64,000 bases of DNA from Candidatus Omnitrophota bacterium (GTDB lineage: Bacteria > Omnitrophota > Gorgyraeia > Zapsychrales > Zapsychraceae), in the NCBI GenBank assembly GCA_029261055.1, contig JAJDCA010000053.1, positions 24,177 to 88,176 on the forward strand, given 5' to 3'. Below the pieces are notes generated by a model, which searched no databases, had not been told where the DNA came from, and was given only the letters and a program-made list of their open reading frames with translations. The first letter of the stretch is position 1. Each line of letters starts with the position of its first letter. A program made the position numbers and the translations under genes. This document shows, one piece after another, positions 1,058 through 58,562 of this stretch.

Positions 1058-1188
1058 CAATCCTCGGGGGTTTGCTCTCTAAAATCTCAGGCAATCCCCC
1101 GAGGTTTGTTGCGGTTACATCGTCTTAACCATTCACAAACCTCGGGGGATGGCGCAGTTTTACGAAAGCCAACCCCCGAGGATTGTTT
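1058..1188. repeat. Nested inverted repeats built on a CCTCGGGGG/CCCCCGAGG core, between the two GT genes.
   Basis: The four arms are caatcctcgggggtttgc (about 1058), gcaatcccccgaggtttgttg (about 1091), cacaaacctcgggggatggc (about 1133) and gccaacccccgaggattg (about 1167). Outer and inner pairs are reverse complements with 1-2 mismatches. The core is itself palindromic, so alternative pairings are possible. Confidence 0.55.
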
Positions 1189-3347
1189 CAATAATTCTTC
1201 TTCTCACTCTCCATTATTTCCTCCACAGCCCCCAAAACTTCCTCTGGCTTAATATCCTGCATGCAGGCATGTGTTAGAATTTTACATCGCTGTTTGTAAC
1301 ACGGTGTGCAGGTTAACTGCCGTTCTAACACAATAAGATTCTTAGCCGGCGGAATATGTCGTCGAGAATCGGTCGGACCAAAAAAAGTAATACACGGCGT
1401 CCCGACGGCTGCCGCCACATGCATCGGCGCCGAATCCGGCGTAATAAAAACACTACACTTTTTAATCAGTGCGGCTAATTGCAAAAGGTCTGTTTCACCA
1501 ACAAAAATAGCTGGCTTAGATTTAGTCCTCTGTACAAGATGCTGGGCCATGGGTTTATCTTTATCCATCCCGGTAATAATGACACGCATACCTTTACCAG
1601 CGAGGAGGTCACAAAGCTGCGCAATGTACTCAAGCGGCCAGTTTTTTGTTTTCCATTTTGGAGAAGCCGCCATATTAATCCCCACCATATTGTGATTGTC
1701 GCCCAACCATTCCGCATCTAACAATGCCTCAACATATTCTTCATCCTTAGCGGAAGGCCACAATTGAAGGTACGCATCCTTATTGTCGTAGGAAATTCCC
1801 AATAAATTTAAAACCTGAAATTGATGCTGCACCGGTGCAAGTTTCATCAATTCTTGTTTTGATTTTTTGACGGTGTGCGACAATAAAAAACCATCTTTCC
1901 CATTATTGTATCCGTAACTATCCTTGGGAAAACTTAAAAAAGACAACCAATGACTTTTCCGACTATTCTGGAAATCAATCACTTTGTCAAAACAATACCG
2001 CCGCAAGCGATGCGCAAACTGCCAGAACTTAAAAAAACCTTTATCTTTATGCTGCGGATCATACATAATTAACTCGTCGACATAAGGACATCCTTGAAGA
2101 ATCCTACGGACATTTTTCCCCACAAGACAACACATTTTTGCTTTCGGAAATTTCTTTCTTAAGGCACGTAAAGAGGGCGTCACTAAGATTACATCACCTA
2201 CCGAACTAATTTTAATCACAAGAATGTTCACGGATTTTAAAAGTTCTTCATAAACACTCATGACTTTCTCAGCCATATGCTCCAGAGTAAATTGTGCCTC
2301 TAATTTCTGACGTGCCGCCTTGGCCAAACGATCCGCTAATGCACGACCCTGCAAGAGCCGCACGACAGCCTTACCCATCGCTTCGGTATCTTTCGGCAAA
2401 ACAAGAAAACCTGTTTGCTCGTCGTCAATAATATCCACAACCCCACCGACTTTTGTCGCCACCACCGGCACATTGAGTACCTGTGCTTCAAGGATCACCC
2501 GCCCAAAAGACTCCGGTGTCACCGAAGAAAGAACCAAGACATCTATTTGTTTCAAAAGCTCAGGAATATCCTGACGACTACCTAAAAATTCAACATGATT
2601 TTGCAGACCACAACGTCGCACCAAGGATTCAAGCTCCTGTTTGTACGCTATTTTTTTAGGAGGCACATCGCCAATAATCCAAATCTTTGCCAAAGGCACA
2701 CTCTGTACTACCTTGGCCATGGCCCGAATAAAATACGTATGACCTTTTAAAGGCGTAATGCGTCCGATGATGGCAATAGTGCATTGCTTACGGGAATTAT
2801 CTAAAAGTCCCGACGCCGGGACTTTTGACACTTTTGCCTTACCCTCTAAATGTTTAAATTTAGCAAGATCTACCCCACGAGGAACGCAACGAATATTCTT
2901 AGCCGGAACCTTGTAGGTTTCTGTCATGTAGCGACCAATCATCGTACTGGGCACAATAACCAGCTTAGACCATCCCATCACCTGACTGTAAAAACGATTA
3001 TTGTAATGCCCATGACATGTCGTAATAAAGGCCGCATTTGTTTTTCGGCACGCGAAATAGGCTATCCAGGCTGGGACGCGTGAACGCGCATGAACAATAT
3101 TTACTCCTTCTTCCTGAATAATCTTACGTAAAGGCGCAACCATACGTATCATCGTCAACAAGGACTTCTTATGAACAGGCAAGGTGTAATGTTTTGTACC
3201 GGATTGCTCTAACTCCGCCACTAACTTACCCCCATTGGACACAACCAATGACTGATGCCCATGTTGAACGAGATATTTAGAAAAATCCACCGTTCCGGTT
3301 TCGACACCGCCAACATTGAGTTCCGGAAGAATCTGTAATATTTTCAA
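1188..3347 (-). CDS. Fusion glycosyltransferase: N-terminal GT4 domain plus C-terminal GT9 (ADP-heptose:LPS heptosyltransferase-like) domain.
   Basis: The 719-aa ORF has a GT4 N-terminal half (GRITPLKGH..., EAQVLNVPVVATKVGG). The C-terminal half is GT9-like (ILVIKISSVGDVILVTPSLRALRKKFP, ...VFITPDSAPMHVAAAVGTPCITFFGPTD). Confidence 0.8.
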   Translation of the reverse strand: MKILQILPELNVGGVETGTVDFSKYLVQHGHQSLVVSNGGKLVAELEQSGTKHYTLPVHKKSLLTMIRMVAPLRKIIQEEGVNIVHARSRVPAWIAYFACRKTNAAFITTCHGHYNNRFYSQVMGWSKLVIVPSTMIGRYMTETYKVPAKNIRCVPRGVDLAKFKHLEGKAKVSKVPASGLLDNSRKQCTIAIIGRITPLKGHTYFIRAMAKVVQSVPLAKIWIIGDVPPKKIAYKQELESLVRRCGLQNHVEFLGSRQDIPELLKQIDVLVLSSVTPESFGRVILEAQVLNVPVVATKVGGVVDIIDDEQTGFLVLPKDTEAMGKAVVRLLQGRALADRLAKAARQKLEAQFTLEHMAEKVMSVYEELLKSVNILVIKISSVGDVILVTPSLRALRKKFPKAKMCCLVGKNVRRILQGCPYVDELIMYDPQHKDKGFFKFWQFAHRLRRYCFDKVIDFQNSRKSHWLSFLSFPKDSYGYNNGKDGFLLSHTVKKSKQELMKLAPVQHQFQVLNLLGISYDNKDAYLQLWPSAKDEEYVEALLDAEWLGDNHNMVGINMAASPKWKTKNWPLEYIAQLCDLLAGKGMRVIITGMDKDKPMAQHLVQRTKSKPAIFVGETDLLQLAALIKKCSVFITPDSAPMHVAAAVGTPCITFFGPTDSRRHIPPAKNLIVLERQLTCTPCYKQRCKILTHACMQDIKPEEVLGAVEEIMESEKKNY

Positions 3348-5305
3348 ATAATTTTCCTCATGGCTTCAAAAATAATTTGATCATCATCCATCCGCCGCAT
3401 CTGAATTTTATTCTTCGCCACATCATAAATGGCTTGACCAATATGGGTTGCATCGGTGGATAAAATAAAACCTTTTTGATTAAGCTTTGCAATAAATGCC
3501 ATGTGCTTATTTTTCTTTACTGATTGTCCTTGCCGTATTTGCGGTGAAAATACGATTGTTTGATTACCGGAAGACGCCGTTTCTGAAATCATAGAAATAC
3601 TGTCTCCGGAGGTCACCACAAAATTTGAAAGACCTAAAATACCTCCTACAGCCTCGGGGACATCTTCTTTATTGGCAAGTATCAATAAAGGACACCGTGC
3701 ATCATTTTTAAACTCTTTTTGAAACAAACTTTCAATATGGGCCGGGGTTCGCCGAGATGTTGTAATTAAAATGTCGGCATTAATCGTTTTTGCAACTTCT
3801 TTAATCTGCTGAATCAAAACCTGCATTTGACGTTTACTAAGATAAACATCTTTAGCATCCCCGCCGATAAAAAGACCTATTTTGTCCCGAAAGTTATTTT
3901 TTAAATGCGAAAATCTATTCAATAACAATTCAGCCTGTTCTTTCAAATACGCATCATTAATAAGATTCGGCGCTCCATTGGTGACAGTCATCCCTGTTTT
4001 CTTAGGATGGCTCCTCAAATCATGCTCCGGCAAAATAACCAAATCAAATTGTGCAGAACTTAATAAACCCGGCTTTTGAATCGCAACACTTTTAGCCCCA
4101 TAATCTTTGGACAACACACGATTAATGCCCGCCACCGTTGAACCACAAGAAATAAAATAATCGGTTTTTATGGTTGTCAATGCACGGTATGATTCCGGTG
4201 TGAAAAACTTCTGAAGAAACTCTAAACGCCCTTGATAAAAAAATGGTTGTACTAAAGCACTCACAAGAGAAAAAAGACGCGCTGCATTCTTACTTTTAAA
4301 TACAACCTCAACGACTTGGACCTGCAATTTAATATTTCTTTCTGCCAGGGCTTTTTCCAGCATTCTTGCCGCTGCTTGCGATTGTCGTAGATGCCCTGTT
4401 CGGCCGTCATAAAGAATAGTGACGGCAGCCTCTTTAGAATATTTCCAAATTTTGTAAAACCACATGTACTCGTCGGGATACTGCCCAACAAACTGTTCCA
4501 TTAATTCCATAGCCTTGTTTAAATTACAAACAACATCTTGTTCCGCATTATCCGTTTTAACAAATTCTAACGGCTTAGAAATAATAATTCGATGCTGTGC
4601 TCCTTTCTCACGATGAATATTTGCAAAACAAACCGCCGCCCCAAGTCTCGTACCTAATCGTATGGCGCCCGTCGACATGGAAGCGCCTCGCCCAAAAAAA
4701 TCAACTACCGTACCGCGCTTCCCGCCCTGATCAACAACAAGGGAAACAATTTCATTAGAACGCAAACTTTTGATAATTTCTTTGGTTTGAGGACCGGCAA
4801 ATAAATAATGAATACCTTGCCCTTCCCGATAAGAATTTAAAAAATGATACAATTTAGAAAATCGCATTTGTGGATTGATGACAACTTTGTACGGAAAACC
4901 TAATTTAGCTCCTTGTAAGCTCGCCAACTCCCAGTTGCCGGAATGAATCGCCAGAAAAATAACACCTTTATGCTTCTGCATGGCCTCTTTAATAATCTCG
5001 CCCCCTTCAAGAGAAACAATTTTTGGTAAGAGATCCTCGCTCATCAAAGGCAAGCGTAAAAATTCAATAATATTCTGGCCGTAATTTTGGAAGACCCGCT
5101 TTAAAATGGCCAATATTTCTCTATTGGATTTTTTCCCGACAAATGCCATCCGTAAATTGGAATACGCCATTGTCCGACGCTTAAGATCAAACCAATACCA
5201 CAATACGCCCACACGGCGACCAATCCAAAGGGCGACACTGAGCGGAAGACAGCGCATAATTGTTCCAAAAATTTTAACGAGCCAGATGATGATGGATTCT
5301 TTCAA
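3344..5305 (-). CDS. LpxL/HtrB-like lipid A lauroyl/myristoyl acyltransferase fused to a C-terminal ELM1/DUF1022 domain.
   Basis: The N-terminal 290 aa resemble LpxL (hydrophobic N-terminus, ...AIHSGNWELASL... acyltransferase block). The C-terminal 350 aa resemble the ELM1 (PF06258) fold (ILYDGRTGHLRQSQAAARMLEK..., IGGDAKDVYLS..., TTSRRTP..., TSGDSISMISE). Confidence 0.7.
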   Translation of the reverse strand: MKESIIIWLVKIFGTIMRCLPLSVALWIGRRVGVLWYWFDLKRRTMAYSNLRMAFVGKKSNREILAILKRVFQNYGQNIIEFLRLPLMSEDLLPKIVSLEGGEIIKEAMQKHKGVIFLAIHSGNWELASLQGAKLGFPYKVVINPQMRFSKLYHFLNSYREGQGIHYLFAGPQTKEIIKSLRSNEIVSLVVDQGGKRGTVVDFFGRGASMSTGAIRLGTRLGAAVCFANIHREKGAQHRIIISKPLEFVKTDNAEQDVVCNLNKAMELMEQFVGQYPDEYMWFYKIWKYSKEAAVTILYDGRTGHLRQSQAAARMLEKALAERNIKLQVQVVEVVFKSKNAARLFSLVSALVQPFFYQGRLEFLQKFFTPESYRALTTIKTDYFISCGSTVAGINRVLSKDYGAKSVAIQKPGLLSSAQFDLVILPEHDLRSHPKKTGMTVTNGAPNLINDAYLKEQAELLLNRFSHLKNNFRDKIGLFIGGDAKDVYLSKRQMQVLIQQIKEVAKTINADILITTSRRTPAHIESLFQKEFKNDARCPLLILANKEDVPEAVGGILGLSNFVVTSGDSISMISETASSGNQTIVFSPQIRQGQSVKKNKHMAFIAKLNQKGFILSTDATHIGQAIYDVAKNKIQMRRMDDDQIIFEAMRKII

Positions 5306-6461
5306 AAAACTCTTCCTTTCCCTGTGTAATCGAAATTTTAATTCTAAGCGCCGCTATTAAAGTATCCTCCGTAAAATGCTTAATAAACTCTGTAAGTTTC
5401 ACCGCATCCTTTTGTGTCGTGACAATCGTCTGCAAATCATGTTTACGGCAATAGGCTGCCATGTCTTGGGCCTCTTGCGCCCCATACACATGATGATCCA
5501 TAAACACAAAATGCTTTTGAATAGCGGCCCCTAAATTTTGTACGGTTTGTCGAAATGATTTTGGATCGCCGATACTGCTCAATAAACACACTTTTTTTGC
5601 TCGAACACATGACAATTCAGAAATAGCATTAGACTTAATGTTAACAAAATGGGCCGGTTTATGTATCGTCTCTATGACGGGCGCATGCGGATTAATAGAC
5701 TTCAATTTTTCCTTTAATGCCTCTACATTGACGCATTCCATATCTGTCTTTGTCAGGACAAAGACATGCGCTCGCTTAAGGGCTGACAACGGTTCACGTA
5801 AAATTCCCCGCGGAATCAACGCGCCATTGCCAAAAGGATTAACACTGTCGATGGCCACAATATCCATATCTCTCGACAAGCGCCAATGCTGAAATCCATC
5901 ATCCAACAAAAAAACATCAGCCCGATTATTTTTTAGAAAGGCTCTGGCATTAGACACCCGGTCTTTGCCAACAAGAATCGGAACGCCCTCCAAAGAACCT
6001 TCCAACATCTTCGCCTCGTCACTTAAATGGGCATGATGAATCATGCCCCTACAGACTCCCCCCGTAAGGGCATGATTCATCATGCCCCAGACGCCCCTCG
6101 TACGGGCATGATTTATCATGCCCCAGACGCCCCTCGTACGGGCATGATTTATCATGCCCTTAATAGGCTTTGACATGTATCCTCGTATGAGAATAGCCGG
6201 CTTTATTTTTTTTTGCTGCAATACTTCCGCAACATATTCCACTAACGGTGTTTTTCCAACGCCACCCAAAGTAATGTTGCCTATGCTAATAACGCGCGCT
6301 CCAACCTGATGCTTACGTAAAATCCCCCTGGTGTAACAAAACGCCATACCTTTCACAATACCACTGTAAACCCAGGACAGGACCCGCAAGGCACCCTTTA
6401 AAATACACGATGGAAAACCTGCAATCTGATCCGTCGCCATGCGGAAAAAAAAATCTTTCAT
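5274..6461 (-). CDS. lpxK: Tetraacyldisaccharide 4'-kinase LpxK carrying an in-frame repeat insertion.
   Basis: SIGNITLGGVGKTP P-loop, ILIRGY, LLDDGFQHWRL and VLTKTD motifs are present. An extra block of about 48 aa (GMINHARTRGVWGMINHARTRGVWGMMNHALTGGV...) sits in the variable loop after RGY. Confidence 0.85.
   Translation of the reverse strand: MKDFFFRMATDQIAGFPSCILKGALRVLSWVYSGIVKGMAFCYTRGILRKHQVGARVISIGNITLGGVGKTPLVEYVAEVLQQKKIKPAILIRGYMSKPIKGMINHARTRGVWGMINHARTRGVWGMMNHALTGGVCRGMIHHAHLSDEAKMLEGSLEGVPILVGKDRVSNARAFLKNNRADVFLLDDGFQHWRLSRDMDIVAIDSVNPFGNGALIPRGILREPLSALKRAHVFVLTKTDMECVNVEALKEKLKSINPHAPVIETIHKPAHFVNIKSNAISELSCVRAKKVCLLSSIGDPKSFRQTVQNLGAAIQKHFVFMDHHVYGAQEAQDMAAYCRKHDLQTIVTTQKDAVKLTEFIKHFTEDTLIAALRIKISITQGKEEFFERIHHHLAR
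6021..6170. repeat. REP-like palindromic array (copy R1) inside the lpxK coding sequence.
   Basis: Four 20-21 bp palindromes (gggcatgatgaatcatgcccc, gggcatgattcatcatgcccc, gggcatgatttatcatgcccc x2) are separated by 15-19 bp linkers. The last two 36-bp units are identical (linker agacgcccctcgtac). The period is 36 bp, equal to 12 codons. Confidence 0.8.
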
Positions 6462-7681
6462 AAAAACTTTCCTATGATGTCCATACTCTTGTCGGTAGCC
6501 CCTTCATTTTGCTCAATCACCCTCATTCCTATTTGCCCCATGGCCGCCATCCGTTCTGAACTATTTAATAACTTCTTCATTTCCGTTAACAATTCCTCAG
6601 GGTCGTTAACTTGAATAAGGCATTTTGCTTTTAGGAAAATGCTCACCACATTTTTAAAATTTTGTGTATGTGGACCAACTAAGGTAGGCTTACCAAAGGC
6701 CACCGGTTCAATCATATTTTGCCCGCCGCCTGCATTAACGTTTAATGTTTTACCAATAAAGACAACCGTCGCAATTTTGTACAAATGCCGCAGATACCCG
6801 ATGGTATCGACAACTACGACGGTGTTTTCATTGATCGCCGTTACACGCACATCCGACAAACGTACGGGATGAAATCGTTTCCGTTTAATAATTTTCATAA
6901 CCTCATCGGTACGCTCAATATGTCGTGGAGCCATCACAAGGCGCAGGCCGGCAAATTCCGACTTCAATTTTGCATACGCATCACAAATGATCTCTTCTTC
7001 CCCCGGATGTGTACTTCCGGCAACAAAAAGACGACCAGGTATGTGCAACTTTAATTCGGATAAATCTAAACCAGGATCTTCTTTCAAATTGTCAAATTTA
7101 ATATTCCCCACACACTTGACTTTATCCGATGGCGCACCTAAATGCTTAATCCGTTCGACATCCTGCTCACTTTGCATACAAAAGAAGTCCACACAAGCCA
7201 AAACGCGACGCGTCAAAAATCGAAACTTTCTGTACCCTTCAAACGATTTATCCGAAATCCGCCCATTAACCAAAACAATAGGCACATTTGCCTTATGCAA
7301 CAAGGCGTACAAGTTCGGCCATATCTCCGTCTCTGCCGTGACATAAATTTTTGGTTGGATAACGCGAATAAACTTCCGCACAACCCAGCTAAAATCCAAA
7401 GGCGCATAGATCACAATATCTTCTTTGGACAGTTTCTCTTTCGCCAATTTCTGCCCCGTCTTGGTAACGGTTGAGCACACAATTTGATAATCAGGAAACC
7501 GCGCTTTAATTTTTTGAATCAAATCCAAAACCGCCAGCACTTCCCCCACACTCACCGCATGCACCCAAACATTCGGCCGACCTCCAATCTGCGCCGTCAA
7601 AGAACGCGAAATCCCCCCCAACCGCATCCCAAACCCCTTATGCCACTTACCCTTAAAACATAAATATGGAAAGTACAGCAA
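6458..7681 (-). CDS. waaA: 3-deoxy-D-manno-octulosonic acid (Kdo) transferase WaaA/KdtA.
   Basis: VWVHAVSVGE..., ...VTAETEIWPNL..., LVMAPRHIER and GGQNMIEPVAFGKP are characteristic of GT30 Kdo transferases. Confidence 0.85.
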   Translation of the reverse strand: MLYFPYLCFKGKWHKGFGMRLGGISRSLTAQIGGRPNVWVHAVSVGEVLAVLDLIQKIKARFPDYQIVCSTVTKTGQKLAKEKLSKEDIVIYAPLDFSWVVRKFIRVIQPKIYVTAETEIWPNLYALLHKANVPIVLVNGRISDKSFEGYRKFRFLTRRVLACVDFFCMQSEQDVERIKHLGAPSDKVKCVGNIKFDNLKEDPGLDLSELKLHIPGRLFVAGSTHPGEEEIICDAYAKLKSEFAGLRLVMAPRHIERTDEVMKIIKRKRFHPVRLSDVRVTAINENTVVVVDTIGYLRHLYKIATVVFIGKTLNVNAGGGQNMIEPVAFGKPTLVGPHTQNFKNVVSIFLKAKCLIQVNDPEELLTEMKKLLNSSERMAAMGQIGMRVIEQNEGATDKSMDIIGKFL

Positions 7682-13780: not shown

Positions 13781-13905
13781 GCATAATGGGCATAATAAAT
13801 TATGCCCCTACAGACGACCATCGTACGGGCATGATTCATCATGCCCATGCAAACAACCCGCGCCCTCGTACGGGCATGATTTATCATGCCCTTATTATTA
13901 CAATA
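13781..13905. repeat. REP-like palindromic element, copy R2.
   Basis: gggcataataaattatgcccc - tacagacgaccatcgtac - gggcatgattcatcatgccc - atgcaaacaacccgcgccctcgtac - gggcatgatttatcatgccc. Confidence 0.75.
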
Positions 13906-21598: not shown

Positions 21599-21698
21599 AT
21601 GAATAATTTAAAGGGCATGATGAATCATGCCCCTACAAACGACACTCCCCGTACGGGCATGATTTATCATGCCCCTAATCGATTCATCATGCCCTAAT
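21599..21698. repeat. REP-like palindromic element, copy R3.
   Basis: gggcatgatgaatcatgcccc - tacaaacgacactccccgtac - gggcatgatttatcatgcccc - taatc - gattcatcatgccc. Confidence 0.75.
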
Positions 21699-23563: not shown

Positions 23564-26500
23564 TTATGGCGCAGACTGAATGACCACCTTATCCACATAA
23601 AGATTCCTGTCACCGCTTGAACCGTAATAATCATTTGTGAACGCAATGGCTACTTTATGCATACCTGCAGAAACATTACTGACACTCACGTACGGCCCAT
23701 ACGAAGTTGAATTTACTGTAAAATTATCCACAGCTACTTGATCTACTCTCACCTCCATTTTAGACCACTCCCCTAACACCTTTTTACCTCGTGCTCTTAT
23801 TTCAAAACTGTAACTGCCACTCGTTGGAAAATCGACCGTCTCCTCAATATATCCATTACTCCAAATATTCCAACTCCCATCACTCTTTCTTCCCCCTGTT
23901 GTTTTAGTTTCCATATTCTCTGCTTCAATTTGTATCGTAAATGGCTCCGGATCTGGTATAGGATTAGGCGGTGTTACATCTCCTCCGCTTCCACTCATTA
24001 ATGTAATATTTATTTTATCTACATAAAGATTCCTGTCGCCACTTGTACCGTAGTAATCATTTGTGAACGCAATGGCTATATTGTGTAAACCTGCAGGAAC
24101 ATCCTTAACGCTCACATATTGCCCAAATGAAGTTGAATTAACTGTAAAGTTATCCACGACAACTTGATCTACCTTCAACTCCATTTTTGACCATTCATTT
24201 AAAATGTTTTTTCCTCGTGCTCTTATTTCAAAAGTATACCTACCATCCGTTGGAAAATCGACGGCTTCTTCGATATATCCATTACTCCAGATATTCCAAC
24301 TCCCATCACTCTTTCTTCCTCCTGTTGTCTTAGTTCCCATATTCTCAGCCTCAATTTGTATCACAAATGGTGCTGGATCTGGTGTAGGCTCCGGCGTGGG
24401 ATCTGGTGCAGGATCAGGTGCAAGATCAGGCGTTACATCTCCTCCACTTACACTCATTAATGTAATATTTACTTTATCCACATAAAGATTCCTGTCACCA
24501 CTTGAACCGTAGTAATCATTCGTGAACGCAATGGCTATATTATGTAAACCTGCCGGAACATTCTTAACGCTCACATATTGCCCAAATGAAGTTGAATTAA
24601 CTAGAAAATTACCCACAACAACTTGATCTACCCTCAACTCCATTTTTGACCATTCATTTAAAATATTTTTTCCTCGTGCTCTTATTTCGAAACTGTAACT
24701 TCCATCTATTGGAAAATCGACAGCTTCTTCGATATATCCATTACTCCAGATATTCCAACTCCCATCACTCTTTTTTCCTCCTGTTGTCTTAGTTCCCATA
24801 TTCTCGGCTTCAATTTGTATCGCAAATGGTGTGAAATCAGCCATGGTCGTCACAGACGTAGACACAGATTGCCCGGATTCATTACTCATCAAATCTAAAG
24901 CTGCAACTCTATAAGAGTATGCCATTCCAGCTGTTAAACCTGTATCCGTGTGGCTAACACTTAATACATTCGTTATTAAAACGCCATCCCGATATATATT
25001 ATATCCTGTCACACCTACATTATCTGTTGATGCACTCCAGTTAAGATCTACCTGTGAAGAAGAAATCGCTATTGCACTGAGGTTCATCGGCATTGATGGG
25101 GCCTCAGTGTCAATATTAGGTACTGGAATTGGTGCTGGCAAAATATCCAGATTCAATTTTGTTACAATTACTGTATACATTCGAGGGGATTGATTCCCTC
25201 CCAAAATAATCTTTCCAGCAGAAAAATTCTTTGCTAATACACTCATTGATCGAATTGATGTTGCAAGATCATCTCCGGTATCTACAAATCCTGACAACCA
25301 TGCAGGCTTATCCGTTTGCCTATTGTCATAAGTTATGTATACCGTAACGTCCTGATCAACATCAAAACTCAAAAAGGTAGCACTACTGGAAGATTTGTCA
25401 TTATTGGATGTTTTAATATAGGTTGCCCCTTGAAGCTGAGAAGGAACACTACTATACATATACGTACGGTCAATATACGCCAAAACACCATTGTTCAAAC
25501 TATCATAGATCACCTGATAGGTCTCTCCACTTTCAACAGATAGATTGCTAATAACTAATGGCATTACATATCTGTATGTAATTTGTGTACCTACAGGAAT
25601 CGCGTTGGCTGAATTAGACAAGTCCCGCACATTAGAAATGCTGAGAGTGTAGGAAACACCTTCACTATGTGGTGATGTAACCAAGGTAACTGTTTTTTGA
25701 TCAACCCCTAAATAAGCATCCACAACAGAAATGCTGTTATTGATTTTATAATTAGATAATGTAGTAGCACTTATTAATTCTACCTGTTCGCTGTAAGTGA
25801 TATCTACTGTATTTCCATTGCTCCCGGCTATTACAGACATAATTCCCGGAGGAAGAATATCTGTCAAAGTACTTACTGTTGCCGAAAAACTTTTCGATGA
25901 TTCCAACCCTGTACTATTAACAGCTGACACTTCATATGTGTGAGAAGCGCCTGATGTTAATCCTGTGTTGGAAAATTGAAGAGATGATGTTTGGTTAATT
26001 TTGACACCGTCTCGATAAATATTATATGTGCTTACACTAGATTCCAAATCAATAGCTGCTGACCAATTGAGATCAATTTGAGATTCACTAACAGCAATTC
26101 CACTAAGATTTTGAGGTGTTGAAGGTGGCGTTGTATCTGGCGTTGAAGGCCCGCCTTCAAGTTCCTTCATAATTTTAAAAAATTCACCACTATGCAAAAT
26201 GGTCTCATAACCATAAAATCCTAACGAAGATGATCCTCTTGATCGAACAACCTTCCAATCATCATAAGCTGCTTCAGCAATGGCACGCCATTTTGGAGCC
26301 GTATCATACCATTGTGAATTTGTTCCTTCCCCATTGTCGTAAAGCTTCCATAAATAGGCTAAAGCATACATCAGATGTGTGCTTCCTCCATCCGTGTTAC
26401 GTGAAGCTTCGGAATAAACAAAATAGGGATGTGATTTTAAATTTTCTTCCCAACCAAATTTCACAACAAAGTTCATGGTTTGCAATAACATCTCTTTTAT

Positions 26501-28798
26501 AAGAGAAGCATCTACATAACTATAATCTTTATCTGTTTCATAAAATTTAATCAAGGAAGCTAAAACAGACCCTGCCATCCAGGGATTAGTTCCGTTATAA
26601 AGCAACTTACCTTGTTTATATTCTGATGGCCACGGAGAATTATCTTGTCGTGGATACATATGCCACCAGCCCGTTCCTTGTGTCCAATCATTCTGACCAA
26701 CAACGGTCCCATTCACCCAATGTTCGGATGGCATCTGCCACCATTGAATAAGATGATTAACTTCCTGGGCTGCCGCTTGAAGATATTTAGTATCTCCCGT
26801 CGCCCTAAAAACTTCATTCATGACAAACAACGGCCAGCCAAAATCCCGTTCAGCCTCACCCCAATGCTCATTACCTACAGGTGTTGGGAAAAAAACAGGG
26901 ATAGCTTTGGCCCACCAATTTCCTACCTCTTTAATAACACCCAATGAACGCTTGTCTCCCGTCAAAATATAATAATCCGGCAGCCCTGAAACATGGGCAT
27001 GTCCCTTATGAATGTTTCTCGAGTTATGATCGTGTACATCATGCTTAATCATATGCCCTTCACCGGGCCCGAAATCTTTATTGCCCCATGGCCCACCGCG
27101 ACGGTCAGTATGCGAAACATCAACATCCATCCAATGGCGTGAAGCCTTTTCAGCTAATTCCCACCATCGTTTATCTTTCGTACGAAGATATTGGATAAAA
27201 TACTGATGCGCCCCGACATGTGTGTCATTATAAAATGCAGGTATGCGTACCCCATTAGAACTTGTCCCATCCCAACCGGCCCGCATACGGTCACCAAAAT
27301 CTCGCCAACCATACATAACCGTAATACCTCCAGTATCTTTTTTATCTTCAATGCTTCTCTTATAATATCCACTGATCAAATTATCATCATAACCAGCTGA
27401 CCAAGGACCAGCCTCAACCATATCCCCAAATACTTTTGATTGGGCATACCATGTAGCAGGTGCTGTCACTAATGGATAATGCGCTTGAAAAACTTTATTA
27501 TGATTACTGATATCCGCTATGGATTTACTCTGATTGTGGAAATCAAATAGAATTTGATACGTCTTTGCCCCACCTTCTCGAGAAAAATAAAATGTATTTG
27601 GCCTTTTGTATTTTTTATTGACTGCATCATGTGGCGGATACGAAAGATCCGGCGTTGGTGACGAAGCTCGTGTTGGGTGAAGGTAAGCAATTAATGCATT
27701 ATTTTCAATAGCAAACTCTTTTGGATATTGCTGCCAAAAATCTTTAATCATCACACCCACACCAGATCCAGTATTATTGCTACTCACGTCCATCCATCCA
27801 GGGGCCTTTGCTCCTGAACCAGCGCCTTCATAACCAAAATCAAATGGTTGCAATCCACCATCAATATAATTCATATCCCCATGCTGATATAAGTAATGAT
27901 TCCCTGACACTGGACCGGTGAGTGTTTGATTATTTTCTCCACCAAATGCATACATCGCATTAGAAAGATTAAGAGGAAGTTTCAAACCATATCCCGTGAC
28001 ACTTAATGCTAATTGACTACGGGAAGCGGCCACATCCTTTTCTAAACGTGTATCCACTAAAGTATAATCCATTTGAATTTGACCTTGCCCAGCATAAGCA
28101 TACAACCAGACAATAAAATCCGTTAAAGTGCTACCATTGTCCGTTTGGAGCTTACCTTCTACCTTAACTGTCATACGAATCGGTCCGCTTTCCTCTATTG
28201 TATAAACCGGCTGCGTAAATAAGGAGGAAGAGTATTCTAAATTGTCGAAGGCATTAATAAGGAAAATTTTACCTGGCTGGCTCATCATTTTTTCAGAATC
28301 GTCATAAAATCCATCCGCATTATTATCCACCCAAACCTGATCAAATACTGTAAACGCACTCTTATTTAATTCAAATTGAATAGCCCCCGTATCAACGAGA
28401 ATTGATGACCCATTATCTACGTAAGAAAGCCCTTCACTATAAGTGGAATGGCTAACGCCTGATCCATACTGGAGAACATAATCTGTTGTTAAATTTGTTG
28501 ATATATCAGAGGCAAAATGAACTAAAATAGATTTGTAGCTGCTGTCCGGCCATTGAACAAGACCTTCAAATTGAGCGGGTATTTCAACACCACCCAAGTT
28601 TTCCAGACGCAAATTATTTAAAGAAGTCACCGCTCCCCTTGGAAAGGGAACACCTGTTGAAACCATGTAATTATTAACATCGGCTGAACCTGCATCCACA
28701 GTTAGAGTAACACTATTTTGAGCGTTGACATTTTGAATTTCTCCGGAAGTTGTCAGAATCACAGAAGCGACCAATAATATGAGCATTTTATTTTTCAT
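23564..28798 (-). CDS. Large secreted multidomain protein: signal peptide, an N-terminal domain of about 800 aa (possible glycan-active or binding fold), two FN3 modules with Ig-like spacers, and three tandem C-terminal carbohydrate-binding modules (CBM6/35-like) joined by Pro/Thr-rich linkers.
   Basis: The signal peptide is MKNKMLILLVASVILTTSGEIQNVNA, with an AGGAGG RBS 7 nt upstream. The FN3-like repeats read ...NLSGIAVSESQIDLNWSA...YNIYRDG.... There are three IQIEAENMGTKTTGG(K/R)KSDGSWNIWSNGYIEE...FTNDYYG(S/T)SGDRNLYVDK units. The linkers read PDLAPDPAPDPTPEPTPDPAP. Confidence 0.7.
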   Translation of the reverse strand: MKNKMLILLVASVILTTSGEIQNVNAQNSVTLTVDAGSADVNNYMVSTGVPFPRGAVTSLNNLRLENLGGVEIPAQFEGLVQWPDSSYKSILVHFASDISTNLTTDYVLQYGSGVSHSTYSEGLSYVDNGSSILVDTGAIQFELNKSAFTVFDQVWVDNNADGFYDDSEKMMSQPGKIFLINAFDNLEYSSSLFTQPVYTIEESGPIRMTVKVEGKLQTDNGSTLTDFIVWLYAYAGQGQIQMDYTLVDTRLEKDVAASRSQLALSVTGYGLKLPLNLSNAMYAFGGENNQTLTGPVSGNHYLYQHGDMNYIDGGLQPFDFGYEGAGSGAKAPGWMDVSSNNTGSGVGVMIKDFWQQYPKEFAIENNALIAYLHPTRASSPTPDLSYPPHDAVNKKYKRPNTFYFSREGGAKTYQILFDFHNQSKSIADISNHNKVFQAHYPLVTAPATWYAQSKVFGDMVEAGPWSAGYDDNLISGYYKRSIEDKKDTGGITVMYGWRDFGDRMRAGWDGTSSNGVRIPAFYNDTHVGAHQYFIQYLRTKDKRWWELAEKASRHWMDVDVSHTDRRGGPWGNKDFGPGEGHMIKHDVHDHNSRNIHKGHAHVSGLPDYYILTGDKRSLGVIKEVGNWWAKAIPVFFPTPVGNEHWGEAERDFGWPLFVMNEVFRATGDTKYLQAAAQEVNHLIQWWQMPSEHWVNGTVVGQNDWTQGTGWWHMYPRQDNSPWPSEYKQGKLLYNGTNPWMAGSVLASLIKFYETDKDYSYVDASLIKEMLLQTMNFVVKFGWEENLKSHPYFVYSEASRNTDGGSTHLMYALAYLWKLYDNGEGTNSQWYDTAPKWRAIAEAAYDDWKVVRSRGSSSLGFYGYETILHSGEFFKIMKELEGGPSTPDTTPPSTPQNLSGIAVSESQIDLNWSAAIDLESSVSTYNIYRDGVKINQTSSLQFSNTGLTSGASHTYEVSAVNSTGLESSKSFSATVSTLTDILPPGIMSVIAGSNGNTVDITYSEQVELISATTLSNYKINNSISVVDAYLGVDQKTVTLVTSPHSEGVSYTLSISNVRDLSNSANAIPVGTQITYRYVMPLVISNLSVESGETYQVIYDSLNNGVLAYIDRTYMYSSVPSQLQGATYIKTSNNDKSSSSATFLSFDVDQDVTVYITYDNRQTDKPAWLSGFVDTGDDLATSIRSMSVLAKNFSAGKIILGGNQSPRMYTVIVTKLNLDILPAPIPVPNIDTEAPSMPMNLSAIAISSSQVDLNWSASTDNVGVTGYNIYRDGVLITNVLSVSHTDTGLTAGMAYSYRVAALDLMSNESGQSVSTSVTTMADFTPFAIQIEAENMGTKTTGGKKSDGSWNIWSNGYIEEAVDFPIDGSYSFEIRARGKNILNEWSKMELRVDQVVVGNFLVNSTSFGQYVSVKNVPAGLHNIAIAFTNDYYGSSGDRNLYVDKVNITLMSVSGGDVTPDLAPDPAPDPTPEPTPDPAPFVIQIEAENMGTKTTGGRKSDGSWNIWSNGYIEEAVDFPTDGRYTFEIRARGKNILNEWSKMELKVDQVVVDNFTVNSTSFGQYVSVKDVPAGLHNIAIAFTNDYYGTSGDRNLYVDKINITLMSGSGGDVTPPNPIPDPEPFTIQIEAENMETKTTGGRKSDGSWNIWSNGYIEETVDFPTSGSYSFEIRARGKKVLGEWSKMEVRVDQVAVDNFTVNSTSYGPYVSVSNVSAGMHKVAIAFTNDYYGSSGDRNLYVDKVVIQSAP
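23583..24840. repeat. Intragenic tandem repeat of about 440-455 bp, three copies, encoding the three CBM units.
   Basis: Near-identical blocks begin at about 23583, 24010 and 24465 (...ccacataaagattcctgtc(a/g)cc(g/a)cttg(a/t)accgta...). Copies 2 and 3 are more similar to each other than to copy 1. Confidence 0.75.
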
Positions 28799-28990: not shown

Positions 28991-29444
28991 CATCCTATTA
29001 TTGACGCGTTTGCGCCTTTGTCTTTTTAATAAAATCTTCTGACTAATAGGTAGCTGGCTACCCTGCTTCTATCCTGCAGGGCCCTTGGCTTTGTGCCCCA
29101 TCCTTACGAATGGTTTACCTTTTTCTATTTCCATTGAAAGTATAACATGAAAAGATCGATGCGCAAGGGACCGGGAGGAACTTTATACAATTTTTTTATA
29201 CGGGGGATTAAAAACTATAGCGGAAGAAAACACAACTCATTGCAATCGTGCAAATTACAAAAAAATAAAATAACCTAAATTTTTTTAATATATTAAATTT
29301 TTTTGCATTTTAATTTTGACGCACTATGACAACAATGGACATACTATGACATTTAGGAGCCAAGCAGAAATAACTTCCCTAATTTTTACGACGTTCTTAA
29401 CGCAAGGAGGCAGAATAAAGAAGAAAATTATTTTTGCTTGGTCT

Positions 29445-30050: not shown

Positions 30051-30094
30051 AATTAATTATCCTTTATTTTAATAAATCATATTATGGGCCTAAT

Positions 30095-30172
30095 AAACCT
30101 TGCCTACTGGCAGGCAGGTTATGCCCCTACAAGCACACATCCGTACGGGCATGATTCATCATGCCCCTAACA
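30095..30172. repeat. REP-like element, copy R4, with a GC-rich palindromic insertion.
   Basis: gggcctaataaa[ccttgcctactggcaggcagg]ttatgcccc - tacaagcacacatccgtac - gggcatgattcatcatgcccc. Confidence 0.7.
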
Positions 30173-45151: not shown

Positions 45152-45190
45152 TTCCATATTGGGCATGACCTGCCTGGTTTATCATGCCCC
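45152..45190. repeat. REP-like element, copy R5; single unit with a GC-rich loop insertion.
   Basis: gggcatga[cctgcctgg]tttatcatgcccc. Confidence 0.55.
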
Positions 45191-45666
45191 TATTTCAAAT
45201 GTAAAGCTGAATTGAATGCCGCCATTAACATTTCAATAGCTGCCTCCACATCCCCTATTAAATATTTATTTCCCTTTTGCACTAAAAATGGTGCCAACTG
45301 AACAGCTTTGTAAGATAATCGACATACTTCTTGAGGCACTTTTTGAGCCCCTTTCAAAGCAGCTTTCTTCTCTCTGGGAGAAGCGTTCTTCGTCTTTACG
45401 ACGTTAAGATAAGCCTCGGCATCTAAATCAACTAACTCTAAAAAACGTTTTCGAATGGCTTCACTTTGATCAAGAATTCTCTGAATCCTTTTCTCCACCA
45501 TTTTAGATTGACTTTTTCCCTTAGAATAATTCGCCACCATGCACAAAAGCGCAGCGCCAAGAGCGCCTGTTAATGCCGCCGCCGAACCTCCACCAGGGAC
45601 TGGTTCTTTTTTGGCCAATACATCTAAATAAGATTTAAGTGTATAATTTTTAAACTTCGAAGGCAT
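45190..45666 (-). CDS. Formiminotransferase-cyclodeaminase C-domain-like protein (methenyl-THF cyclohydrolase/cyclodeaminase family).
   Basis: ...PVPGGGSAAALTGALGAALLCMVANYSKGK... matches the FTCD_C signature. It is adjacent to folD. Confidence 0.7.
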   Translation of the reverse strand: MPSKFKNYTLKSYLDVLAKKEPVPGGGSAAALTGALGAALLCMVANYSKGKSQSKMVEKRIQRILDQSEAIRKRFLELVDLDAEAYLNVVKTKNASPREKKAALKGAQKVPQEVCRLSYKAVQLAPFLVQKGNKYLIGDVEAAIEMLMAAFNSALHLK

Positions 45667-57561: not shown

Positions 57562-58035
57562 TTAAGATTTCTCTTGTACAGCTTTTCTAAACGTCCCTAA
57601 AATCGATTCTAACACAGCACTCCACACAATTTTATAAACCTCATCATAATACACCGTTTCTTGCACAAGCTGCCCTTCCACACTCCTTAAATGAACGCCG
57701 GTATTAAACCTTTTTTTTACTGAAGCTTCAGATCCTTCTTTTTCTGACCATCGTACTTCACCTTCCATGTTAACAATCTTTTTAGAAGTTGGAACAAACA
57801 CCTCCAAATGAAGCGGGGCCCCTTTTTCTAATTTTTGATCAGAAATAAAACACAAACCATCTGAACTCACATTTTGACTCACCGCAGAATGGGGCGTAAG
57901 ATCATCATTATCTACATCCCCCTCTGATCTTTGAAATTTTAATTTTGCTTTTACATCATAAGCAAATTGAAAATTAATATCGACACGCGCCGAATGCCGT
58001 TTATGCTCTCTTTTTTCCGCAGAAAAATCTTTCAT
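57562..58035 (-). CDS. PilZ-domain protein.
   Basis: It has the RxxxR motif (EKREHKRHSARVDI) and a D/NxSxxG motif (SQNVSSDGLCF). Confidence 0.55.
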   Translation of the reverse strand: MKDFSAEKREHKRHSARVDINFQFAYDVKAKLKFQRSEGDVDNDDLTPHSAVSQNVSSDGLCFISDQKLEKGAPLHLEVFVPTSKKIVNMEGEVRWSEKEGSEASVKKRFNTGVHLRSVEGQLVQETVYYDEVYKIVWSAVLESILGTFRKAVQEKS

Positions 58036-58562
58036 ACCGAATCGTCCTCTTTTTTTTGTGCAAGAATTCTAAAATTCCCCAAAATGGACTGCAAAACAAC
58101 ACTCCATTCAACCTTGTAGGTCTCATCAAAATAAATGGATTCAAAAACGGAATCCCCTTCTACTTCTGTCAATTTAACACCTGATTCAAATTGACATTCA
58201 GATTTTTCATTAGGAAGACCTGGCTTGGACCACCGTACACTACCTTTCATGTGGACAGGCTCTTTAGAAGAAGGTACAAACACTTCTAAACTAAGAGCGG
58301 TATCCACTTCTAATTTATGCTTAGAAATAAAACATATTCCCTCTGTACTGACATTTCTACTAATAGCCAAATATTTTTTAGAAGAGTCCTCTTGTTTGTT
58401 TTGCTCACCTTGCCCCTCAATACGATATTCCACCTTTGTCTCAATATCATACGGAATATCAAAATAAATTTTAACCTCTGTATCAAAACGATTAGATTTT
58501 CTACGGTCCTTCTCTGGAGTATCCATACAATAATATCCTTTCTTATGTAAAAACAAAATCAC
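58032..58562 (-). CDS. PilZ-domain protein, paralogue of the preceding gene.
   Basis: DRRKSNRFDTEVKI and SRNVSTEGICF. The architecture matches 57562-58035, including a shared C-terminal ...WSVVLQSILGNFR... versus ...WSAVLESILGTFR.... Confidence 0.55.
   Translation of the reverse strand: MILFLHKKGYYCMDTPEKDRRKSNRFDTEVKIYFDIPYDIETKVEYRIEGQGEQNKQEDSSKKYLAISRNVSTEGICFISKHKLEVDTALSLEVFVPSSKEPVHMKGSVRWSKPGLPNEKSECQFESGVKLTEVEGDSVFESIYFDETYKVEWSVVLQSILGNFRILAQKKEDDSV

Follow-up and report, generated by a model that had tools for sequence, protein, structure and literature searches.

An in-frame array of GTAG-tagged REP palindromes in lpxK of an Omnitrophota bacterium: probably a tolerated insertion later lengthened by local duplication

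The basis of repetitive extragenic palindromic (REP) sequences is a palindromic unit of 20–40 bp, with a stem of 6–13 bp and a short loop, that is able to form a hairpin (PMC3733652). Members of the GTAG superfamily carry a 5′ GTAG beside a short palindrome, are present in high copy number and tend to lie just downstream of open reading frames (ORFs), between genes that run in the same direction or converge (PMC3733652). They are known from Proteobacteria, Cyanobacteria, Chloroflexi and the Planctomycetes–Verrucomicrobia–Chlamydiae (PVC) superphylum, and some families are common to distant organisms (PMC3733652). The subject here is a GTAG-type REP array that lies in frame inside lpxK, the gene for tetraacyldisaccharide 4′-kinase, in 64,000 nucleotides of DNA from a Candidatus Omnitrophota bacterium (assembly GCA_029261055.1, contig JAJDCA010000053.1, forward-strand positions 24,177–88,176). 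This whole stretch is called ‘the window’ and all positions are counted from its first nucleotide.

Palindromic repeats within genes have been described several times. Intragenic GTAG and CGTC REPs were reported from several species by Di Nocera, De Gregorio & Rocco (2013, BMC Genomics 14:522; PMC3733652), more than half of them as dimers or groups encoding 20–30 amino acids, with clusters encoding up to 43–82 amino acids. Their supplementary table includes the same enzyme: in Opitutus terrae Oter_3001, a tetraacyldisaccharide 4′-kinase of 444 residues, a GTAG-19 dimer encodes residues 271–317. The classic in-frame palindromic elements in housekeeping genes are the Rickettsia palindromic elements (RPEs). 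For the REPs and REP doublets (REPINs) of Pseudomonas fluorescens SBW25, the commonest higher-order arrangement is a tandem of near-identical units, which has been read as a sign of a second mechanism that acts locally (PMC3116915). An earlier note on this DNA, made from the sequence alone, had called a REP-type element in a lipid A enzyme unusual. That was an overstatement, since in-frame intragenic REPs and RPEs are documented, lpxK of O. terrae among them.

The array occupies positions 6029–6159 (131 nt, minus strand) of an intact 395-residue ORF at 5274–6461 (minus strand). This ORF matches the Pfam family PF02606 (E = 6.6e-75), and the match falls into two stretches with the array in between. 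Tandem Repeats Finder, unit dissection and six-frame translation resolve the array into four palindromes and three spacers. The palindrome, GGGCATGATnnATCATGCCC, is 20 bp long, and its four perfect copies start at 6029, 6068, 6104 and 6140. The start-to-start spacings are 39, 36 and 36 bp, and the exact 36-bp period first proposed therefore applies to the last two intervals and not to the first. Tandem Repeats Finder gives 6029–6159 a period of 36, with 3.6 copies, 90% matches and a score of 193. The pattern GGGCATGATNNATCATGCCC is matched 10 times in the window, against an expectation of 0 from 100 dinucleotide-preserving shuffles. Four of these matches are in lpxK and six are intergenic, at three sites, so that the array is real and belongs, as the earlier note had it, to the palindrome family of the intergenic spacers.

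Unit by unit, the array shows both its relation to these spacers and a change of its own. Palindrome 1 (6029–6048), which encodes GMIHHA, has the loop GA on the plus strand and is followed by CTAC, a GTAG tag on the minus strand. Spacer A (6049–6067; 19 nt, CTACAGACTCCCCCCGTAA) is homologous by alignment to the first spacer in all three intergenic arrays. Palindrome 2 (6068–6087), with the loop TC, is followed by spacer B (6088–6103; 16 nt, CAGACGCCCCTCGTAC), in which the CTA of the tag is absent and the 3′ part matches spacer B of the intergenic array at 13.8 kb. Palindrome 3 (6104–6123) has the loop TT. The remaining segment, a second CAGACGCCCCTCGTAC spacer with palindrome 4 (6124–6159), is an exact 36-bp duplicate of 6088–6123, and this identity points to a recent local tandem duplication. 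The tag is thus deleted (CTA gone) in lpxK units 2 and 3, and these units would have lost their mobility if a REP-associated tyrosine transposase (RAYT) needs GTAG. A single 20-bp palindrome is predicted to fold as single-stranded DNA into an 8-bp stem with a 4-nt loop (−8.5 kcal/mol, z −4.1 to −5.8). The hairpins have no T-tract and no intrinsic terminator was called within the array, so read-through of the operon is to be expected.

Each of the three intergenic arrays is flanked by genes of one strand and begins 6–7 nt past the stop codon of the upstream gene. The trimer at 13788–13891, between an HhH-GPD glycosylase gene and rmuC and 6 nt from the upstream stop codon, has its parts in the order found in lpxK: palindrome, spacer A, palindrome with a TC loop, spacer B, palindrome with a TT loop. 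A dimer with a half-copy lies at 21613–21694, between the genes for the ATPase (E) and platform (F) proteins of a type II secretion or type IV pilus system. The third array, at 30086–30166 between trpC and trpF, consists of a degenerate palindrome joined by spacer A to a perfect one. The six intergenic matches start at 13788 (with two mismatches), 13827, 13872, 21613, 21655 and 30147. Alignment shows that the series palindrome, CTACA...CGTAC spacer, palindrome is common to all four loci, whilst the lpxK and 13.8-kb arrays also share a third element (...CCCTCGTAC, then the TT-loop palindrome) and the order of the loop variants. On the minus (gene) strand, tagged copies read GTAG-GGGCATGAT.... 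CTAC, the complement of this tag, stands after the palindromes at 6029, 13788 and 21613 and after the degenerate one at 30086, CTAA stands after those at 21655 and 30147, and GTAC precedes six of the copies in the window. A half-palindrome remnant (TTTATCATGCCCCTA) is also present at 45176–45192, at the junction between the stop of an FTCD_C-domain gene and the start of a folD-like gene.

By its sequence, the lpxK element is a GTAG-tagged REP, as the earlier note had suggested in speaking of a REP-type element. The 20-bp unit is a short, hairpin-forming palindrome; a GTAG tag stands at one end, though it is partly degenerate in the window; and the copies (10 at four loci within 64 kb) are dispersed and mostly extragenic, lying downstream of ORFs. 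A relation to REPINs was also considered. All four loci contain a palindrome, spacer A, palindrome unit with mutually inverted CTAC...GTAC tags, whose orientation can be read only from these 4-nt tags because the core is a perfect palindrome. When the array is folded as RNA, pairing between neighbouring palindromes is only one of the alternatives. A scan of 52 ORFs of the window revealed no Y1_Tnp/RAYT transposase.

In the coding sequence, the repeat DNA begins with the last base of codon K101 and ends with the first of codon H145. It contains 43 whole codons, G102–A144, rather than the roughly 48 first estimated. The encoded block reads GMINHARTRGVW, GMINHARTRGVW, GMMNHALTGGVCR, GMIHHA; of three copies of the peptide previously claimed, two are exact, the third is the diverged GMMNHALTGGVCR, and the fourth unit is partial. 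In an alignment with 15 orthologues, the block has the invariant R93-G94-Y95(-M96) before it and S147-D148-E149, likewise invariant, after it, and it ends 2 residues short of the catalytic Asp-Glu. The earlier placement, in a variable loop just after the RGY motif, was correct as to the variability of the loop but one-sided as to position, since the block is equally near SDE. The RGY-to-SDE linker has 51 residues here compared with 6–29 (median 11) in 114 homologues, these being the proteins that supplied the length range among 120 homologues retrieved, this protein included. In Aquifex aeolicus LpxK the linker has about 23 residues. The 29-residue linker of one homologue, P0098, was examined as a possible independent REP insertion and rejected, as it is encoded by ordinary AT-rich DNA with no palindrome. 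A linker of this length without a palindrome implies that the site tolerates length variation, yet the REP insertion is unique to this lineage.

Orthologue alignment had been proposed as the check on lineage specificity, and its outcome is clear: the block occurs in 0 of the 119 other homologues, none of which contains GM[IM]xHA. When 1.84 billion representative proteins were searched exhaustively by HMMER with a 52-residue block, the parent protein was the sole genuine match; three further matches were to unrelated low-complexity or repeat proteins and were discarded. The closest homologues of the lpxK product are LpxK proteins from metagenome-assembled genomes (MAGs) of Candidatus Omnitrophota. 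The identical protein occurs once in a collection of 15 billion proteins, on one 100,731-bp NCBI contig, as a singleton cluster. The next best match, of 347 residues, is 51% identical by BLASTP and 56% identical in a MAFFT alignment. A metagenome scan with the lpxK/array junction gave a single match, by chance, in an unrelated nucleosidase-like gene.

The enzyme into which this block is set appears otherwise complete. The note's claim that the frame and the catalytic motifs are kept holds for the whole ORF: frameshifts and stops were looked for in lpxK and none was seen, and all 61 columns that are invariant in the 15-orthologue alignment are conserved. The LpxK motifs all fall in such columns, namely the Walker A sequence G66-G67-V68-G69-K70-T71 (GxGKT), R93-G94-Y95, S147-D148-E149, D187-D188 (Walker B) and H267. 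In A. aeolicus LpxK, R72 binds the lipid at its 1-phosphate and at the distal glucosamine, D99 makes a hydrogen bond to the catalytic H261, and E100 contacts the γ-phosphate and probably Mg2+ (PMC6286764). A HMMER alignment pairs R72 and D99/E100 with R93 and D148/E149 here, which places the block between two active-site elements.

Structure modelling of the insertion loop leads to the same picture. The AlphaFold2 model built from the alignment has a mean predicted local distance difference test (pLDDT) score of 79. Residues 97–144 are predicted to be disordered; they alone fall below 50, and the other blocks score about 85–95. The low value for the block is partly a consequence of its having no homologues in the alignment. 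In Foldseek, the model matches the A. aeolicus LpxK structures 4EHY/4EHX with a TM-score of 0.78–0.81 (target-normalised). The 43 residues would probably loop out from the surface as a disordered segment between the lipid-binding R93 and the catalytic D148/E149. The motifs and predicted fold are those of a functional enzyme, and this LpxK very likely still works.

How a repeat of this kind could enter a gene without closing it can be seen from its reading frames. The core has a TGA in one frame and the GTAG tag has a TAG in a second, and in the real array one frame per strand is free of stops (two of six), both reading G-M-I-x-H-A. The palindromic core, together with these TGA and GTAG stops, means that the same peptide results from either orientation of insertion. 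By a simple estimate, roughly 1 in 9 random insertions would be expected to leave the host ORF open (one-third of the phases multiplied by one-third of the element lengths). LpxK is essential in model Gram-negative bacteria. An open frame on its own is modest evidence for selection, and it fits the survival of only the non-disruptive insertions in an essential gene.

The history that we favour, with a probability of a little under 0.8, is that of a tolerated REP insertion in lpxK followed by local tandem duplication, the repeat being a passenger that came through purifying selection rather than an adaptation. A composite GTAG-type REP (palindrome, spacer A, palindrome, spacer B, palindrome), with the same structure as the intergenic unit of this genome, would have inserted into a short RGY-SDE linker, whether mediated by a RAYT or otherwise, and would have hit the sole stop-free reading phase. 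One 36-bp unit, spacer B with a palindrome, would then have been copied locally, with replication slippage or unequal recombination as the probable means. The array less one such unit is 95 nt long, which with one further base makes a whole number of codons. We infer the mechanism of insertion, the order of these events and the retained activity of the enzyme. The coding and intergenic copies have the same loop variants (GA, TC and TT) and the same spacer types, so there is no sign of adaptation to coding. The word ‘domesticated’, used in the earlier note, finds no support in such an array: its loops and spacers are of the intergenic kinds, disorder is predicted for the block and nothing indicates an acquired function.

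Several points weigh against this history. There is no close relative or second strain from which the ancestral linker, the insertion event or its age could be reconstructed. With 43 disordered residues placed between two active-site elements, catalysis could be impaired. The predicted disorder is in part an effect of the missing homologues, the intact frame is only modest evidence for selection given that about 1 in 9 random insertions would preserve it, and no RAYT gene was found among the 52 ORFs scanned in the 64 kb.

The damage that such a block might do suggests one alternative, that the insertion has recently crippled LpxK and that the gene is an early pseudogene, its ORF still open through shortness of time or the open frame of the repeat, its function supplied by another copy or dispensable. 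The exact 36-bp duplicate, which implies recent events, would suit this idea, as would the position between R93 and D148/E149 and the 1-in-9 chance of an open frame. However, the whole gene is free of frameshifts, stops and motif losses, the lipid A genes on either side are intact and are coupled to it in translation, and the window contains no second lpxK. The linker, moreover, accepts 6–29 residues in homologues and about 23 in A. aeolicus, and recent inactivation is accordingly judged to be very improbable. We think equally little of the opposite possibility, in which the loop or the hairpins in the mRNA have gained a function: a loop rich in His and Arg could aid binding to the membrane or the lipid substrate, or the hairpins could tune mRNA decay or translation in the waaA-lpxK-lpxL operon. 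The block is indeed basic and His-rich, with 5 Arg and 5 His in 43 residues beside the lipid-binding Arg, and LpxK acts at the membrane through a basic patch (PMC6286764). The whole array folded as RNA reaches −93.6 kcal/mol (z = −9.7), and the unit has been amplified in place instead of lost. However, the palindrome offers a single open frame, which fixes the peptide; no coding-specific change distinguishes the lpxK copies from the intergenic ones, the block is predicted to be disordered, and it is present in no other LpxK among the 119 homologues or the 1.84 billion representatives.

The array, or its copy number, might also have been made or distorted by a metagenome assembler in resolving a genome-wide repeat. 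The contig belongs to a MAG, the palindrome is repeated at dispersed sites, and the identical units 3 and 4 form a pattern that assemblers can miscount. Nevertheless, lpxK runs on in one frame on either side of the array, which a chimeric join would not give; units 1 and 2 are distinct, and a 131-bp array should be spannable by single short reads. Similar single in-frame copies also occur in independent assemblies, and an assembly artefact is in our view barely credible.

The palindrome is not confined to this bacterium. A scan of one genome per species found at least 115 loci that carry it; the genome of the window itself is absent from these loci. Among the matches listed, these are concentrated in Chloroflexota MAGs, in a repeat-rich MAG labelled Prevotella, in other Omnitrophota and in several other phyla, and in most of them the core is flanked by gtag...ctac, extending it to a 28-bp palindrome. 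The MAG labelled ‘uncultured Prevotella sp.’ (CAZRSL01; loci L003, L005, L010, L035, L040, L060, L065, L081, L089 and L092, among others) has about 55% GC and is very rich in palindrome doublets. These doublets are 44–46 bp apart with outward GTAG/CTAC tags and are REPIN-like; the Prevotella label looks doubtful.

The fetched loci were screened for long open frames that span a copy, and in-frame palindromes were found in five proteins. Four are encoded in Chloroflexota MAGs: an AMP-binding enzyme (L061, 4685–6457), for which the Pfam match (E = 4e-54) passes over the insert unbroken; a methyltransferase (L072, 5487–6416); a PMT-like glycosyltransferase with two in-frame copies (L069, 2079–3380); and a 751-residue membrane protein (L012, 4358–6610). 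The fifth, also from a Chloroflexota MAG, is a RAYT-like Y1 transposase ORF (L108, 2770–3303) of Anaerolinea sp. GM_bin2_OCT21 (JBDNCV010000160.1), in which the palindrome reads GMIYHAPT. An HUH motif is present in this ORF, whose match to NCBIfam NF047646, ‘REP-associated tyrosine transposase’, has E = 7e-17 and, at 61.6 bits, falls short of the 80-bit cut-off for an equivalog. Its in-frame palindrome is placed between the HUH motif and the C-terminal half, and motifs of the GTAGGGGC type flank the ORF. The in-frame copies in these five loci read (R/G)GMIYHAPT, in general GM(I/M)xHAPT. A multi-unit block like that of LpxK was found nowhere else in the HMMER search of representative proteins.

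A broader idea can be built on these cases: a single REP core, GGGCATGATnnATCATGCCC, shared across distant phyla and translatable in a single frame, could act as a recurrent ‘peptide cassette’ (G-M-I-x-H-A-P/R-T) that enters protein loops, including that of a RAYT-like transposase, and that can be expanded, as in lpxK, as a coding tandem repeat. We regard this as unlikely. If it were true, uncultured bacteria would have in this cassette a general, REP-driven means of varying protein length, and the basic His/Arg loop of LpxK might aid function at the membrane interface.

The surroundings of lpxK are those of a lipid A operon. The stop of waaA, the Kdo transferase gene (6458–7681, minus strand), overlaps the lpxK start in the sequence ATGA, and the start of the next gene, which combines an lpxL-type acyltransferase and an Elm1-like domain (3344–5305, minus strand), overlaps the end of lpxK by 32 nt. 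The gene order waaA-lpxK-lpxL/Elm1 and the overlap recur in a distant Omnitrophota relative (loci L116/L117), to which the similarity of the window is distant only. The fusion of acyltransferase and Elm1-like (PF06258) domains directly downstream of lpxK is conserved in that relative (L116, 4109–6076). Downstream of the lipid A genes, one ORF at 1188–3347 (minus strand) joins a GT4 glycosyltransferase to a GT9 heptosyltransferase domain, an architecture also seen in L116/L117.

The whole window (1–64000) holds roughly 52 credible genes, all on the minus strand. After a c-di-GMP-I-GGC riboswitch (29045–29128, minus strand; Rfam, 59.3 bits) comes a hairpin with a T-run that resembles a terminator, and the riboswitch lies about 250 nt upstream of a 1744-residue ORF (23564–28798, minus strand) with three CBM60 modules, fn3 and rhamnogalacturonan-lyase-like domains. 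This ORF contains a 459-bp tandem repeat at 23973–24831. Two adjacent PilZ-domain ORFs (57562–58562, minus strand) are present in the same window as this cyclic di-GMP riboswitch.

The lpxK array extends the in-frame insertion of REPs and RPEs into housekeeping proteins to the Omnitrophota and to a previously undescribed palindrome family that crosses phyla; a literature search on the palindrome string and on REPs in Omnitrophota found no relevant paper. It provides a case of a REP cluster enlarged within a gene by tandem duplication, between two active-site motifs. It also singles out the linker between RGY and SDE as a very permissive part of LpxK, a point of use in protein engineering and annotation. 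REP inserts split Pfam matches, and genes that carry them could pass for pseudogenes or misassemblies.

Among known systems, contingency loci and other coding tandem repeats resemble the lpxK array in having a unit that is a multiple of 3 within a gene, with a length that is variable in principle. In contrast to these, no variation within a population has been seen here, the target is a housekeeping enzyme of the cytoplasmic face and no surface antigen, and the repeat derives from a dispersed mobile palindrome. The likeness to RPEs is that of a palindromic selfish repeat in frame in a housekeeping ORF, with an added peptide thought to be compatible with fold and function. However, RPEs are single elements of about 100–150 bp in Rickettsia-specific families of unrelated sequence, whilst the lpxK array is made of a 20-bp hairpin with a 16–25 nt spacer in tandem; organism, unit size and sequence all differ, and only the in-frame insertion is shared. 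In the work on REPINs and on RAYT-mobilised REP clusters (Bertels & Rainey 2011; Nunvar 2010), REPs occur mainly as doublets and their higher-order clusters are often tandems of near-identical units, and a RAYT-like gene is linked to the present palindrome in the Anaerolinea MAG. REPINs are, however, described as extragenic, and in the window the tags face inward (PAL-CTAC...GTAC-PAL, where PAL is the palindrome) and no RAYT is found in the 64 kb.

The GTAG REPs of Di Nocera and colleagues share with the lpxK element the short tagged palindrome, the mostly extragenic location downstream of ORFs and the occasional in-frame occurrence as dimers or clusters. The palindrome sequence here is different and absent from the text of their catalogue, and the host phylum is the Omnitrophota. 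With the O. terrae case the array has in common both the target enzyme, LpxK, and a host of the PVC group. The O. terrae insert is a dimer encoding residues 271–317, whereas the site here is residues 102–144, between RGY and SDE, and is filled by four units, one of them an exact tandem duplicate. The phenomenon is a known one and the locus represents no new kind of system; what sets it apart is the palindrome family, the Omnitrophota host, the site in LpxK and the tandem duplication in place.

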